From Gammaproteobacteria bacterium (GTDB taxonomy: Bacteria > Pseudomonadota > Gammaproteobacteria > GCA-002705445 > GCA-002716945): 64,000 nt of DNA. Below, in pieces: positions 5,503 through 63,452 of this stretch (the stretch's first letter is position 1; every line of letters begins with the position of its first letter). The stretch is taken from the NCBI GenBank assembly GCA_029246085.1, contig JAQWOB010000003.1:7608-71607 (forward strand), given 5' to 3'. The notes below the pieces were generated by a model. The model saw nothing but the letters and a program-made list of their open reading frames with translations. It was not told the DNA's origin and did not search any database. The translations under genes were made by a program, and so were the position numbers.

Positions 5503-6810
5503 ATGAATAATACAAATTTGTGGGATAAATGCCTAGAAGCGTTTTGCGACAACCTCTCAGAAAAACAAATGAAAACCTGGATTCATCCTCTTGAGGTCAG
5601 CTGTAATAGTGACACTTTAAGCGTTATTGCCCCAAATAAGTTTATAAAAGACACTGTTGAAAATGATTTTATTGAACTGATTAGAGAAACAGTTCTGATT
5701 ACAAGCAACAATGAGGTTTCGGTAGTTAAGCTTTCCTTGCCAGAGGTTAAGGCCACGGCAAGAATAACCCCTAAAGTAAAAACCTCTAGCATAAAGTCTT
5801 CGTTGAATGCTGACTTGAATTTTGAAAATTTTGTTGAAGGGAAATCAAACCAGCTAGCAAAAGCAGCTTGTATATCTGTGGTGGCAGAGCTTGGGCAGTA
5901 TAATCCGCTTTATATATATGGAGGGGTTGGGCTTGGAAAAACCCACTTATTGCATTCAATAGGGAACGAAATTCTCAAACAAGACAAGAGAAAAAGAGTT
6001 GTCTATCTACATTCAGAGAAATTTGTGCAAAACATGATTACCGCAATAAGGACTAATAAAATAGAAGAGTTTAAAGATTTTTACAGGTCAGTCGATGCTT
6101 TATTGTTAGATGATATTCAGTTTTTTGCTAACAAGGAAAAATCTCAAGAAGAGTTTTTTCATACTTTTAATACGTTGTTCGAATATAAGAAACAGGTTGT
6201 TTTAACATCTGATAAATATCCTAAGGAAATAGTTGGTTTAGAGGAAAGAATTAAATCCAGGTTGGTGTGGGGTATGAGTGTCACAATAGACCCCCCAGAT
6301 CTAGAGACACGGGTGGCTATTTTGCACGGTAAGGCAGAAGCAGTAAACCAAAAGATACCCGATGATGTTGCATATTATTTGGCAAAAAACGTGTATTCAA
6401 ACGTTAGGGAGTTAGAAGGAAGCTTGAGGCGGGTTTTAGCTACAGCACACTTCAAAAGAGTGGCGGTTACACTTGCTTTTACAAAAGAGACTTTGAAAGA
6501 TTTAATTTCTTTACAAGAAAGGCTTATGACAATTGAACAAATACAAAAAACAGTTGCTGGTTATTATAATGTGAGGGTTTCAGATTTACTGTCTGCGAAA
6601 AGAGATAGGAAGATTACGCTCCCAAGACATGTTGCAATGTCTATTGCTAAACAATTAACTAGCCACAGCTTGCCCACAATAGGTGATGCCTTTGGTGGGA
6701 GGGATCACACAACTGTCCTCCATGCTTGTAAAAAAGTAAAAGCATTAAAACTAACATCGACATCAGTAGACCAAGACTACCAAAACATATTACACACATT
6801 AAACAACTAA
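5503..6810 (+). CDS. dnaA: Chromosomal replication initiator protein DnaA.
   Basis: 435 aa. AAA+ Walker A (GGVGLGKTHLLHSIGNEI) and the C-terminal DNA-binding domain (TLPRHVAMSIAKQLTSHSLPTIGDAFGGRDHTTVLHA). Confidence 0.97.
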   Translation: MNNTNLWDKCLEAFCDNLSEKQMKTWIHPLEVSCNSDTLSVIAPNKFIKDTVENDFIELIRETVLITSNNEVSVVKLSLPEVKATARITPKVKTSSIKSSLNADLNFENFVEGKSNQLAKAACISVVAELGQYNPLYIYGGVGLGKTHLLHSIGNEILKQDKRKRVVYLHSEKFVQNMITAIRTNKIEEFKDFYRSVDALLLDDIQFFANKEKSQEEFFHTFNTLFEYKKQVVLTSDKYPKEIVGLEERIKSRLVWGMSVTIDPPDLETRVAILHGKAEAVNQKIPDDVAYYLAKNVYSNVRELEGSLRRVLATAHFKRVAVTLAFTKETLKDLISLQERLMTIEQIQKTVAGYYNVRVSDLLSAKRDRKITLPRHVAMSIAKQLTSHSLPTIGDAFGGRDHTTVLHACKKVKALKLTSTSVDQDYQNILHTLNN

Positions 6811-6984
6811 CTGTTAATAACCCGTGGAAAACAACGTGCGAGTTTATACCCACAGGTTATGCACCAACCAAACACCTTGTAAGAACCTCACGCTAACCAA
6901 AACTCTTTCTAAATACAGAGCCACTGTTAACTCCTAGCAAAAATTAGCAAAACATAACAATAAAAATAATATATAATTTTAAAT

Positions 6985-60180: not shown

Positions 60181-60954
60181 TTATGGATTCATAGAAGTTA
60201 TTTTTTTATGAATACCTGTCCATAAATCATATCGGATCTCTATGCTCTTAATTGCCGCATCCAAAGCTTGATTGTATTTTAAATCATTATTTTCATATGA
60301 CTTTTCAAACAGTATTAATGATAATGGCCCATGCCTATTTGAATCTATATCAATATGTCTTTTTAAATAAAGTTTCAGGGAATCATATTTTGAAGACAGG
60401 CCAATTTTTGCTAATAGTTGCTCAAACATTCCAGGAAGAGTTGTTTCTCTACCATATGTGAATAATGCAGATATAATATGGAGCTCATTTGTATTCAGTA
60501 ATTTGTTATTTTCATTTAAAAAATTAAAACATTCAGGCTCTAGATCGTATTTATCAAAGCCCTTTAGTTTATTTCTTGAAGTATCATTTATTATAGACTC
60601 AATTATATCTGTTTTTGCATTAATATTTTTCATGCTAGATAGATATAAATCAAAATGTGACATAAAAATGCCATCTGAAATTTCATCTGATTCTTCAGCC
60701 ATAACTATTTCATTTATTAATCTTGTTATTCCATTTTTAGAAAAACTATTTGGATACCAAGGTGTTGATGATGGACAAATTATACTCTGTAATTTTTTTA
60801 CAATGCACATAAAATCCCAGACCGCAAAGACATGAAACTCCATGAATATCTTTAAATGATCTTCTGTAAATACATAACTCTTAGAGAGTAATGGATGATT
60901 ATTCAACGTATCTATTTTTTTTTTGAGTATAAGTTCCTTCTTCATTATTTTCAC
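60181..60954 (-). CDS. DUF3050 family protein (predicted haem-oxygenase-like fold).
   Basis: 257 aa. N-terminal HVFAVWDFMCIVKKLQ and INEIVMAEESDE segments match my recollection of the DUF3050 consensus. Several spaced His/Glu/Asp residues are present. Confidence 0.65.
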   Translation of the reverse strand: MKIMKKELILKKKIDTLNNHPLLSKSYVFTEDHLKIFMEFHVFAVWDFMCIVKKLQSIICPSSTPWYPNSFSKNGITRLINEIVMAEESDEISDGIFMSHFDLYLSSMKNINAKTDIIESIINDTSRNKLKGFDKYDLEPECFNFLNENNKLLNTNELHIISALFTYGRETTLPGMFEQLLAKIGLSSKYDSLKLYLKRHIDIDSNRHGPLSLILFEKSYENNDLKYNQALDAAIKSIEIRYDLWTGIHKKITSMNP

Positions 60955-61025: not shown

Positions 61026-61060
61026 CACTGGCAAGAAAATACTTAATCTTCTTGCCAGTG
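61026..61060. terminator. 12-bp perfect hairpin (CACTGGCAAGAA-11 nt-TTCTTGCCAGTG), between the TonB-dependent receptor stop and the DUF3050 start. Possible terminator or attenuator.
   Basis: Read directly from the sequence. On the transcribed (minus) strand it is followed by an A/T-rich tract rather than a clean U-run. Confidence 0.4.
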
Positions 61061-61070
61061 GCCTTATATG

Positions 61071-63032
61071 TTAGAAGTTATATCTCATGGATACATCAAT
61101 CCCATAATTTGCTCCTTGAACGGGAACATGATCTTTGATCAGAGATGAATGGTTTCTAATAGTTTTATTTAGAATATTATTCCCATAAAGATTGAATACT
61201 AAATCTTTATTAGAATCATAAGTAATCTTTTTAGAATATCCTATATCTAAATCAAGGTGTGAATTTGTCTTAGTCTCAATAGAAGACATATCACCTTGAG
61301 ATTCTGTATATATAAGATTTGCGTAATAAGTATCACTTTTATTATTTTCATACTTTAGAGATAAAGTATTTTTAGCAGGGCTTAATCGAGGTATATATGT
61401 ATTATCATCAAATACACCCGAAATATCGTCTCTACTCAATGTTACTAATAGGTCACCATTTCCTATCATGTATGAGCTAGACATTGATATTTCATAGCCT
61501 TGCATAACTGCACTTTTTTGACTCCAAGTTGCATCAGTCTTGCCACTAGTAGTCGTAGACTCATCTTTCAAGTAAATAAAATTATTAATATTATTTCGAT
61601 ATAAGTTCAAGTTCATATCTATATCATTAAAATTATATTCTAAATTTAATTCAATATTTCTTGATACTTCTCTTGAAATTCTATTATTCCCACGTTCATA
61701 TCTTGAAGTAGCTCCATGCACGCCGTTTGCAAACAGTTCAGCTACAGATGGACTTCTAGATATATGGGCATAATTCATATTATACATGAATGATTCTCCA
61801 AGATTAGCAGCAAAACTTGTACCAAAGCTCAAGGATGTATCTCCATATCTTTGGTTATCACTATCTCTGGAATTAGATTCATATCTACCAGCAAAATCTA
61901 TTTCATATGGTCTATTTTTAGTCCTTATGAAATAAGATATTGATCTTTCATATGCCTCTGATGATGGCAGATAAGCGCCTGTCATCGGAGATTTAGTATG
62001 ACCATACTGAAGGAGAAATCTTTTTTCATATAACTCATCATCTAAATTAAAATTGAAATCAAATGATGTTCTATTGCTGTCTAAAGATGCAGATCCATCC
62101 TCTTCATGCTCTTTTAAAAAAGAGTTTGAATTTCTAAAAGAATAGTCAATAGAATTAAAAAGTGGAACTGTATTAAATTTACCTTTTAAAGTATATGTTT
62201 CAGTTTCAGTTTTTGTAAATAACCTATGTTCTTCCTCTTCTTCATGATGCCCCTCTTCTTCTTCTTCAGCATGATATGGAAGACCATAAACGCCATCCGT
62301 ATTCTCAAAAGAGAAGCCAAAGTATCCCCACTCTCTTGGAAAAGATAGACCAAAACTAGTGTTTTGATTTTTATGGTCTGAGTTAGCAAGTGTGCTTAGC
62401 TCTAACCCTGTATCCTCGCTCAAAAGAGAGCCATTGGGTATATTATAGTTATCCATATGTTTGTTATTAATAGAAAAGAATATATTTGCATTTAAGTAGT
62501 TTTTCTTAAATAAAAAATTATGTCCATATCCATTATTAACTGTTGTGTAATCAAGCTTTATGACTTCATTGTCATATTTATTTTCGCTTATGATGTCTGT
62601 GATGACATTAATAATGCCGCCACTAGTTCCACCACGATTAAATATTGACGAAGGTCCTCTTAATATTTCTATATGTGAAATATTATTCAAATCAATATTA
62701 TTTATATGATCCCCGCTCAAATTACTGAGATCATTTATAGGTATATTATTTGAAAGCAATCTTGTTCGATTGCCAGTTAAACCTCTTATTACAGGCTGCC
62801 CAACAGCTGCACCATAATCTGCATTTGATAATCCGGATAATCCTTTGAGGTTATCCCCGATACTTCTGTTAACATTTATCTCTTCATTTTGCATGATATG
62901 CAGCGGATATTTACTCTCACTAATTGAGTTAGTAAATTCAGATGATGTAACACTGATATCACTCAGTTCTTCAGCTGATACTACATTAATGCATACAAAT
63001 AATAGAGAAACTATGAAAATGTTTTTAAACAT
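61071..63032 (-). CDS. TonB-dependent outer-membrane receptor with a His/Glu-rich loop (ZnuD-like candidate metal receptor).
   Basis: 653 aa. Signal peptide (MFKNIFIVSLLFVCINVVSA|EE), plug-domain motif (ILRGPSSIFNRGGTSGGIINVIT) and a C-terminal aromatic terminus (MRYNF). Internal motif HAEEEEEGHHEEEEEH. Good RBS (AAAGGAGACACAAATG). Confidence 0.9.
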   Translation of the reverse strand: MFKNIFIVSLLFVCINVVSAEELSDISVTSSEFTNSISESKYPLHIMQNEEINVNRSIGDNLKGLSGLSNADYGAAVGQPVIRGLTGNRTRLLSNNIPINDLSNLSGDHINNIDLNNISHIEILRGPSSIFNRGGTSGGIINVITDIISENKYDNEVIKLDYTTVNNGYGHNFLFKKNYLNANIFFSINNKHMDNYNIPNGSLLSEDTGLELSTLANSDHKNQNTSFGLSFPREWGYFGFSFENTDGVYGLPYHAEEEEEGHHEEEEEHRLFTKTETETYTLKGKFNTVPLFNSIDYSFRNSNSFLKEHEEDGSASLDSNRTSFDFNFNLDDELYEKRFLLQYGHTKSPMTGAYLPSSEAYERSISYFIRTKNRPYEIDFAGRYESNSRDSDNQRYGDTSLSFGTSFAANLGESFMYNMNYAHISRSPSVAELFANGVHGATSRYERGNNRISREVSRNIELNLEYNFNDIDMNLNLYRNNINNFIYLKDESTTTSGKTDATWSQKSAVMQGYEISMSSSYMIGNGDLLVTLSRDDISGVFDDNTYIPRLSPAKNTLSLKYENNKSDTYYANLIYTESQGDMSSIETKTNSHLDLDIGYSKKITYDSNKDLVFNLYGNNILNKTIRNHSSLIKDHVPVQGANYGIDVSMRYNF

Positions 63033-63072
63033 TTGTGTCTCCTTTATAAATTAATTTAAATTAAATTGAATT

Positions 63073-63360
63073 CTATAAAAGAGGCGGTGCCCTAGAACTA
63101 AATGGAGATTTTTGATTGTTACTTATTAAAAAAGGTTGTAAGTATGATGCAATGAGCAAAATACCAAGAATTTGTAAAATTAAATTTGAGCCTATGATAG
63201 GAAGAGCAGAATTGGAGCTCAAATGACATGTTATACACTGATGACTCTCTTCATTCTCATGCTCATCAAAATGTAAGTGAAACTCACTTATCATCTGTGA
63301 TGAAATAAACAAAGCTAAGACAATTTTAACAATTAATTTTACAGATTTATTTTTTGTCAT
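63073..63360 (-). CDS. Small His/Cys-containing membrane protein upstream of the TonB-dependent receptor (DUF2946-like metal-binding candidate).
   Basis: 95 aa with an N-terminal TM/signal, the motif EFHLHFDEHENEESHQCITCH, and a second hydrophobic segment. The family assignment is an inference from motif and position. Confidence 0.5.
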   Translation of the reverse strand: MTKNKSVKLIVKIVLALFISSQMISEFHLHFDEHENEESHQCITCHLSSNSALPIIGSNLILQILGILLIASYLQPFLISNNQKSPFSSRAPPLL

Positions 63361-63378
63361 ATATTTGTCTATTTAAAA

Positions 63379-63452
63379 TGGGCCCGGGAGGACTCGAACC
63401 TCCGACCAATGGATTATGAGTCCACTGCTCTAACCAACTGAGCTACAGGCCC
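63379..63452 (-). tRNA. tRNA with anticodon CAU. This is either elongator tRNA-Met or lysidine-modified tRNA-Ile2; the variable loop resembles E. coli ileX.
   Basis: Reverse-complement gives GGGCCTG-TA-GCTC-AGTTGGTTA-GAGC-A-GTGGA-CTCATAA-TCCAT-TGGTC-GGAGG-TTCGAGT-CCTCC-CGGGCCC-A, which folds into a canonical 74-nt cloverleaf. CCA is not encoded. Confidence 0.9.

Follow-up and report, generated by a model that had tools for sequence, protein, structure and literature searches.

The closest described counterpart of the receptor examined here is ZnuD of Neisseria meningitidis, in which the high-affinity zinc ligands are Asp-99 and His-100 together with Glu-340 and His-499; its extracellular loop 3, termed 'metal-sensing' by its authors, carries cluster 1 (241-HSHEYDDCHAD-251), where the crystal shows two cadmium sites, and cluster 2 (288-HDDDNAHAHTH-298), which samples the solvent and gathers zinc in simulations (PMC4557270). 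The closest counterpart of the small gene that precedes the receptor gene is CruR of Bordetella pertussis, a DUF2946 protein in which ribosome arrest at an RAPP motif keeps a downstream TonB transporter expressed; copper sensed through a CxxC motif frees the arrest, and the 45-residue spacing between the two motifs matters, being 45 +/- 2 across the DUF2946 family (PMC9426467). Arrest at RAPP has been shown structurally and in vitro, and upstream open reading frames (ORFs) that contain RAPP are reportedly enriched ahead of TonB-dependent receptors (PMC10951233, PMC12992588). Here we analyze a stretch of 64,000 nucleotides from a gammaproteobacterium (contig JAQWOB010000003.1; hereafter the window), the minus strand of which encodes a TonB-dependent receptor with a glutamate- and histidine-rich tract, preceded by a CruR-like ORF. 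The reading that we favor, with reasonable though not high confidence, is that the tract acts as a loop-3 antenna of a ZnuD-like metal transporter that is itself under the control of a CruR-like leader.

The features of the receptor gene on which this comparison rests are as follows.
61071..63032, minus strand: ZnuD-like TonB-dependent receptor gene, 653 residues (Pfam Plug and TonB_dep_Rec_b-barrel).
62973..63032, minus strand: predicted signal peptide, residues 1-20, ending ...NVVSA before EE, read by eye from the sequence; it contains the protein's sole cysteine, C14.
62613..62897, minus strand: Plug domain, residues 46-140 (Pfam PF07715, 1e-13).
62706..62711, minus strand: D108-H109 in the apical loop of the plug, corresponding by alignment to ZnuD Asp-99/His-100.
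62097..62111, minus strand: tip of loop 4, E308-HEED, in which E308 corresponds to ZnuD Glu-340 by profile alignment.
61716..61718, minus strand: H439, corresponding by alignments to ZnuD His-499.

ZnuD ranks first in the NCBIfam, PDB and Foldseek comparisons. The top NCBIfam model for the receptor, the barrel of which matches Pfam with an E value of 3e-17, is ZnuD (NF038289, 1.9e-52), and ZnuD is also the top PDB sequence match, both from the single sequence (1.4e-32) and from a 72-sequence profile (7.8e-74 over the full length, with the next entry at 4e-19). An AlphaFold2 model built on the same 72-sequence alignment has a plug and 22 strands, with a predicted local distance difference test score (pLDDT) of 79.7 and a predicted template modelling score of 0.81, and in Foldseek three ZnuD entries lead (E 1e-31 to 3e-30, template modelling score ~0.8-0.85, and 0.82 for the match at 1e-31), with haem, siderophore, B12 and OprC receptors ranked behind them. 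When the offset of 14 between the ZnuD PDB chain numbering and that of PMC4557270 is allowed for, all four zinc ligands of ZnuD are matched in the window receptor (at positions that the alignment tool counts one lower), and D108, H109, E308 and H439 are invariant in all 182 homologues of an alignment that spans ~24% to 100% identity. By sequence and predicted fold the receptor is ZnuD-like; it is not a ZnuD orthologue.

The same rankings bear on a different cargo, haem or a metallophore complex, for which the tract would aid ligand docking. The next matches after ZnuD are haem receptors (TonB-hemlactrns; PhuR, ChuA and ShuA), an earlier annotation had mistaken ZnuD for a haem receptor (PMC4557270), and the TonB transporter CrtA imports copper in chelated form (PMC12914433). 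However, ZnuD binds no haem and its pocket fits a single ion (PMC4557270), the invariant Asp and Glu ligands are features of ZnuD, and no metallophore-biosynthesis or haem-utilization genes recur beside the family, so that we consider a cargo of this kind very improbable.

The tract itself lies in the loop that corresponds to the metal-sensing loop of ZnuD.
62223..62285, minus strand: extracellular loop 3, residues 250-270, between strands 5 and 6 (DSSP on the AlphaFold2 model; ZnuD alignment).
62226..62273, minus strand: Glu/His tract H254-AEEEEEGHHEEEEE-H269 (in-frame translation; pLDDT <50; an indel hot spot among close relatives).

Translation of the minus strand across 62217-62279 gives PYHAEEEEEGHHEEEEEHRLF, residues 252-272 of the receptor; the plus strand reads ...ttcttcttcttc... 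across the tract. The original prediction had described a Glu/His run at 62224-62277 encoded by GAA/GAG-like DNA, and the exact translation was recovered, the claimed span falling inside the one translated here, as was the DNA run. Glutamate or histidine occupies 14 of the 16 residues from H254 to H269, whereas the runner-up 16-residue stretch outside the tract, in a background of 64 non-overlapping window ORFs (19,138 residues; E 5.6%, H 1.9%, combined frequency 0.075), contains 8. The binomial chance expectation for stretches like the tract is ~4e-10 in 19,138 residues, and the tract is unique within the window proteome. Short GAA/GAG runs could in principle be miscalled, which would make the repeat a sequencing or assembly artefact; yet the identical receptor protein is found on contigs of four independent assemblies and its 90% identity cluster has 136 member sequences, and so the tract is no artefact. 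The reading frame is moreover intact in every allele and the feature is family-wide, and the probability that we leave to an artefact is negligible.

With loops counted from the periplasmic start of the barrel, DSSP assigns strand 5 to residues 235-249 and strand 6 to residues 271-286, so the modelled topology agrees with the earlier placement of the tract in an extracellular loop, here loop 3, and not in a periplasmic turn or the plug. In the profile alignment HAEEEEE stands opposite HSHEYDD of ZnuD, at the start of cluster 1, and the C-terminal run of glutamates with the following arginine stands opposite AHAHTHSGR, at the end of cluster 2. In the model, then, the tract forms the tip of loop 3, disordered and exposed at the surface, in a position homologous to the metal-sensing loop of ZnuD. 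The term 'insertion', by which it had first been described, does not hold: relative to ZnuD the loop is instead shortened, with ~45 residues missing.

The length of the tract varies even among very close relatives. Within the 90% cluster of the window protein there are alleles of 15, 14, 13, 12 and 8 residues, which explain nearly all protein length differences in that cluster. Genes with 95-97% DNA identity to the window gene show indels nowhere in 1.96 kb but in the tract, where one, two or three complete codons (GAA, GAG or CAT) set them apart from it; genes that are 93% and 86% identical lack 7-8 tract codons. The length variability that had been proposed is therefore evident inside a single 90% identity cluster, and the pattern fits replication slippage, as was suggested, or unequal exchange in the GAR run. 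On/off phase variation was considered and rejected, as every allele is in frame; because the frame is always kept, the variation would tune length and not act as a switch. The description of the DNA as a repeat stands in part: real 12-nt repeats occur in relatives, but the repeat at the window tract is short ((GAA)4GAG ... GAAGAAGAGGAAGAA) and Tandem Repeats Finder called no tandem repeat there.

Among more distant homologues the composition of the tract is retained while its length changes. The frame YG[IL]P[FY]H-(tract)-R[IL][FY] is present in 109 of 120 database homologues, with tracts of 7-38 residues composed of E (66%), H (13%), G (7%), A (6.5%) and D (4.5%), and a His/Asp/Glu-rich loop 3 was found in 158 of the 182 aligned relatives, with stretches of 7-58 residues; the tract is thus present in nearly all relatives and far from being absent in orthologues. 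The genome loci with tracts of up to 58 residues belong to SAR86, SAR92/Porticoccaceae, Luminiphilus, Halieaceae, Woeseiaceae and others. Tandem (GDEH)n repeats form many of the loop-3 tracts, including those of SAR86 and SAR92; in the SAR86 locus L041, for example, a 12-nt (GDEH) repeat is present in 7.9 copies with 96% identity. The flanking residues H254 and R270 are kept in 171 and 173 of the 182 sequences, respectively. Since higher-GC relatives (Luminiphilus, Halieaceae) retain the composition, it is not a by-product of AT bias, and the alignments indicate family-wide selection for His/Asp/Glu composition despite fast change in length.

Similar His/Asp/Glu tracts occur elsewhere in these receptors only at the tips of loops 2, 4, 6 and 8, including insertions in relatives at the position of E308 in loop 4, whereas the periplasmic turns are of constant length. 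SAR86 and SAR92 homologues carry extra His/Asp/Glu tandem repeats on these four loops (e.g., L041:5612-5686, 6072-6153 and 6720-6825), such that their outer face is wholly decorated, while in the window protein such residues are confined to the loop-3 tract and to EHEED in loop 4. In public metagenome-assembled genomes some close homologues (P0012; L059, L006) go under the labels Pelagibacterales, Methanobacteriota archaeon or Flavobacteriales; on a gammaproteobacterial-type outer-membrane receptor such labels most likely reflect binning contamination.

These data also allow an explanation without any role for metal to be weighed, in which the tract is a tolerated low-complexity expansion or a hypervariable epitope under pressure from phages or grazers. 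Phages commonly use TonB receptors, and the tract, modelled as disordered, is highly variable in length and short or absent in some relatives. Set against this, His, Asp, Glu and Gly make up ~90% of tract residues across the 109 homologues and the composition holds in 158 of 182 relatives, the flanking His254 and Arg270 are conserved, a like composition arises independently at four other loop tips, and the position is homologous to a metal-binding loop of ZnuD; diversification of an immune type would be expected to alter composition and not length alone. We therefore judge this explanation improbable, if less so than a haem-type cargo.

The second part of the comparison concerns the ORF upstream of the receptor gene.
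63073..63360, minus strand: upstream ORF of 95 residues, a putative CruR-like arrest-peptide leader (CruR/DUF2946 layout).
63223..63279, minus strand: putative metal-sensing segment H28-L-H30-FDEHENEESHQ-C42-ITC45-H46, with conserved H28, C42 and C45.
63082..63093, minus strand: RAPP arrest motif R90-A-P-P93, followed by LL and the stop codon (alignment of 40 upstream ORFs).

This ORF ends 40 nt before the receptor gene, and a comparable ORF is found ahead of the receptor at 65 of the 84 related loci, the remainder being mostly truncated or having RSPP or QAPP variants. When 40 of these ORFs are aligned, the R and both P residues of RAPP are invariant and the A is at least 90% conserved, as are H28, C42 and C45 each; RAPP usually lies two residues before the stop, and nearly all of the ORFs have a hydrophobic N-terminal segment, seen by alignment. 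A CxxC motif is present in 50 of 62 family ORFs, with a poorly conserved spacer to RAPP of 44 residues in the window and 40-42 in 44 of the 50, the latter a little under the DUF2946 range. The 95-residue ORF itself has no match in Pfam or NCBIfam (none to PF11162, DUF2946, at E<=1), while PF11162 matches 7 of the 40 family ORFs, with a best E value of 0.011. In the leader ORFs of L010, L021, L022, L015, L020, L029 and L051 one or both CxxC cysteines are lost while the His cluster and RAPP are kept, which argues that sensing chemistry differs within the leader family. By analogy with CruR, the leader probably gives post-transcriptional metal control of the receptor.

Folding predictions suggest how such control could operate at the ribosome-binding site.
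63038..63042, minus strand: the receptor gene's Shine-Dalgarno sequence, GGAGA, for which pairing is predicted when the mRNA is free.
63104..63108, minus strand: UCUCC, its predicted partner in the window (minimum-free-energy structure, z -1.47).

In locus L001, which is identical to the window here, the probability that the Shine-Dalgarno sequence is unpaired rises from 0.04 to 0.22 when a ribosome is placed on RAPP, and the mean over 54 loci is 0.21 for the native sequences, 0.31 when the 3' end of the leader is shuffled and 0.37 with a ribosome on RAPP. Across the family the predicted pairing falls mainly on the Ala-Pro-Pro codons and a few bases after them, whereas in the window UCUCC is predicted instead. 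A (TAAAT)x5 array at 63047-63072 fills most of the 40-nt gap between leader and receptor and constitutes the AU-rich loop of the predicted hairpin. We infer from these folds a SecM-like logic, whereby the stall would expose the ribosome-binding site and release would hide it; because the genome is AT-rich, we also infer that control of translation initiation is likelier than Rho-dependent termination.

Two further features define the extent of the unit.
61026..61060, minus strand: intrinsic terminator-like hairpin with a 15-bp stem, directly after the receptor gene.
63379..63452, minus strand: tRNA-Met(CAT), ending 18 nt before the ATG of the upstream ORF.

The terminator-like hairpin makes the receptor the last gene of its unit, and the 18 nt between the tRNA and the ATG are too few for a promoter or operator of the leader's own. 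There is no evident Shine-Dalgarno sequence before the leader ATG either (63361-63452), and the leader may share a transcript with rpoD-msrA-tRNA, its translation starting from a very short 5' end. No riboswitch or other known RNA besides the tRNA was detected in the window. A search for enriched 7-mers upstream of the leader ORFs revealed no operator, just a conserved promoter-like element, CTTGAAAAAT-N(13-14)-TGGTCTAGTATG, in about ten SAR86-type loci (L036, L039, L041, L042, L047, L072 and others), at 10-60 nt ahead of the leader ORF; it ends 8-15 nt before the leader ATG, which suggests leaderless or near-leaderless leader-ORF mRNAs in SAR86. A functional tie to the downstream DUF3050/HamA_HO-like (haem-oxygenase-like) gene at 60181-60954 on the minus strand was considered and rejected, as this gene is unconserved beside relatives and a terminator lies between. 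In one strain with otherwise identical neighbouring genes it is represented by a weak 73-residue remnant (L001:8088-8306, in region L001:7962-8683; 70 versus 565 bits).

The identity of the metal is a separate question, to which receptor and leader give somewhat different answers. The cargo is most likely Zn2+, which we consider about twice as likely as Cu2+, a serious alternative. Copper is not among the metals first proposed for such runs (Zn2+, Ni2+ and Co2+), and it is the CruR-like leader that brings it into question. If copper were the cargo the architecture would be the same, with the Glu/His loop capturing Cu2+ or Cu-carboxylate chelates and the leader sensing copper. The leader has the layout of CruR (CxxC, a spacer of ~41-44 residues and RAPP near the C-terminus), CruR represses its TonB transporter specifically with copper, and DUF2946 operons are mostly copper-linked (PMC9426467, PMC12914433). 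Histidine and carboxylates bind Cu(II) too, and CopZ-like HMA and MerC-like membrane proteins adjoin some relatives. In a 46%-identical relative, the CopZ-like HMA protein, with a His-rich N-terminus, is encoded ~1.6 kb upstream of the leader on the opposite strand (L011:2704-3114, minus strand). Directly downstream of the receptor, L075 (7251-7655) and ~10 other, mostly SAR86-labelled, loci encode a membrane protein of the MerC family (Pfam 3.8e-24) whose C-terminus is rich in Cys and His; it is a possible inner-membrane partner for the imported metal.

The receptor, in contrast, is ZnuD-like and not CrtA/BfrG-like or OprC-like, and all four zinc ligands of ZnuD are invariant. The copper site of OprC, of Cys/Met/His type, needs both Cys and Met. 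As the mature window receptor has no cysteine an OprC-type site is impossible, and no TIGR01778 match was found at E<=0.01. CrtA proteins are 707-911 residues long, are usually followed by a PepSY_TM gene and form a cluster distinct from the structurally known ones, including ZnuD (PMC12914433); the window receptor has 653 residues and is followed by a terminator and an unrelated gene, no PepSY_TM gene recurs in 80 related loci, and no link between BfrG and ZnuD was found in the literature searched. Operator searches (Zur, Fur and CueR) upstream of the unit were negative, bar one SAR86 locus, L034 (MED-G82), where the 17 nt GTGTTATATTATAACAC, 6 nt ahead of the leader ATG, form a perfect Zur-like palindrome (L034:4600-4631; chance expectation ~3e-4 for a pre-specified core). 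A Zur-like gene adjoins distant, leader-less relatives.

The leaders, too, depart from the copper system, as the marine sequences add a conserved His cluster and 12 of 62 have no CxxC. Nor is the DUF2946 family solely copper-linked. The czrCBA operon encodes what we take to be a Zn/Cd efflux system. In Caulobacter this operon is headed by a DUF2946 gene, the system being annotated there just as a resistance-nodulation-division (RND) system (PMC4176598). We accordingly regard copper as the less probable cargo, albeit one to be taken seriously, and zinc as the preferred one.

Under the reading of an antenna on a ZnuD-like, leader-controlled transporter, the carboxylate and imidazole groups of the Glu/His run would form a low-affinity antenna for scarce divalent transition-metal ions at the cell surface and would pass the ion to the buried site formed by Asp108, His109, Glu308 and His439, after which TonB-driven movement of the plug would admit it to the periplasm. 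Replication slippage, through in-frame gain or loss of GAA, GAG and CAT codons, would let the length of the tract drift and so tune the antenna without inactivating the gene. When metal is low, a ribosome stalled on RAPP would hold the ribosome-binding site of the receptor open; binding of metal to the nascent His/CxxC segment would end the stall, whereupon the site would re-pair and receptor synthesis would fall.

Several observations weigh against this reading. The Mg2+ and Ca2+ of seawater would be competitors for the carboxylates. In the model the tract takes no defined structure, with a pLDDT of <50 for residues 252-268, and close relatives have just 7-8 tract residues (AEEEEEH). Loop 3 is minimal in a few distant relatives (Methylococcales, Burkholderiales), so that the tract is an accessory module on a conserved core and not an essential part. 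The receptor scores 179 bits against an NCBIfam ZnuD cut-off of 950, and searches ahead of the unit gave no Zur box for the window or for 62 of 63 related loci, L034 being the exception. With regard to the leader, the window fold is not significantly better than shuffles (z -1.47), pairing of CCNCC with GGAGG is partly an automatic outcome of coding for Pro-Pro, and the family-wide P values of the ribosome-binding-site test ignore the relatedness of the 54 loci. Finally, the only characterized CruR is copper-specific, zinc having little effect (PMC9426467).

Zinc and copper in surface seawater are sub-nanomolar and mostly complexed. To our knowledge, outer-membrane uptake of either metal by abundant heterotrophic bacteria is poorly known. 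The locus defines a widespread marine ZnuD-like family with an intact zinc-type pocket and fast-evolving, putatively metal-catching loops, which bears a predicted ribosome-arrest leader where a Zur operator would be usual; the literature searched yielded no account of this marine family. Its parts, namely a ZnuD-like core, a putative antenna of poly-Glu/His or GDEH repeats and a short-gap RAPP leader, are of known kinds; their combination is new. It is tempting to speculate further, as a possibility that we hold only tentatively, that a zinc-sensing branch of CruR/RAPP leaders coupled to a ZnuD-like importer with an evolvable Glu/His or GDEH-repeat antenna, in which the Ala-Pro-Pro codons double as an anti-Shine-Dalgarno sequence and the stall switches translation on, might be the main outer-membrane route for trace metal in abundant marine Gammaproteobacteria (SAR86, SAR92/Porticoccaceae, Luminiphilus and relatives). 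The sequence marker YG[IL]P[FY]H-(E/D/H/G)n-R[IL] could be used to follow trace-metal stress in metagenomes and metaproteomes.

Compared with ZnuD of N. meningitidis (PDB 4RDR/4RDT/4RVW), the window receptor has the same 22-strand TonB-dependent barrel with a plug, an identical Asp-His-Glu-His high-affinity pocket and, above it, a flexible extracellular loop 3 rich in His and acidic residues. It is, however, only ~20% identical to ZnuD and far under the NCBIfam cut-off; its loop 3 lacks the ~45-residue, Cys-bounded middle and the Cys pair, and is Glu-dominated whereas that of ZnuD is His/Asp-rich. Its unit has an RAPP upstream ORF and no Zur box, and its host is a free-living marine bacterium of 32% GC, whereas that of ZnuD is a pathogen. 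CrtA/BfrG and OprC (PDB 6FOK and related) are likewise TonB-dependent importers of transition metals, often with CruR-type upstream ORFs (PMC12914433), but they are weaker matches to the window receptor than ZnuD is. CrtA, by its description, is set apart in a separate cluster, with other conserved site residues, a longer chain and a PepSY_TM partner.

The window leader resembles CruR in being a small first gene before a TonB-dependent transporter, with a hydrophobic N-terminus that may serve as an export signal, a CxxC, a spacer of 44 residues (45 in CruR) and RAPP 2-3 residues before the stop. It differs in being unmatched by Pfam DUF2946, in its extra conserved His cluster before CxxC, in an intergenic gap of 40 nt (family median 45) as against 162 nt in Bordetella, and in the family to which the downstream transporter belongs. 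With SecM, MifM, ApdA and ApdP it shares a C-terminal RAPP-type motif in a small protein, here putatively exported, encoded just upstream of the regulated gene (PMC10951233, PMC7897499, PMC12992588), and in the marine family the stalled ribosome is likewise predicted to open a downstream ribosome-binding site. In contrast to these systems, the gene putatively regulated by the marine leader encodes a metal transporter and not a component of the Sec/YidC machinery, and the signal for release is presumably metal binding and not pulling by the translocon.

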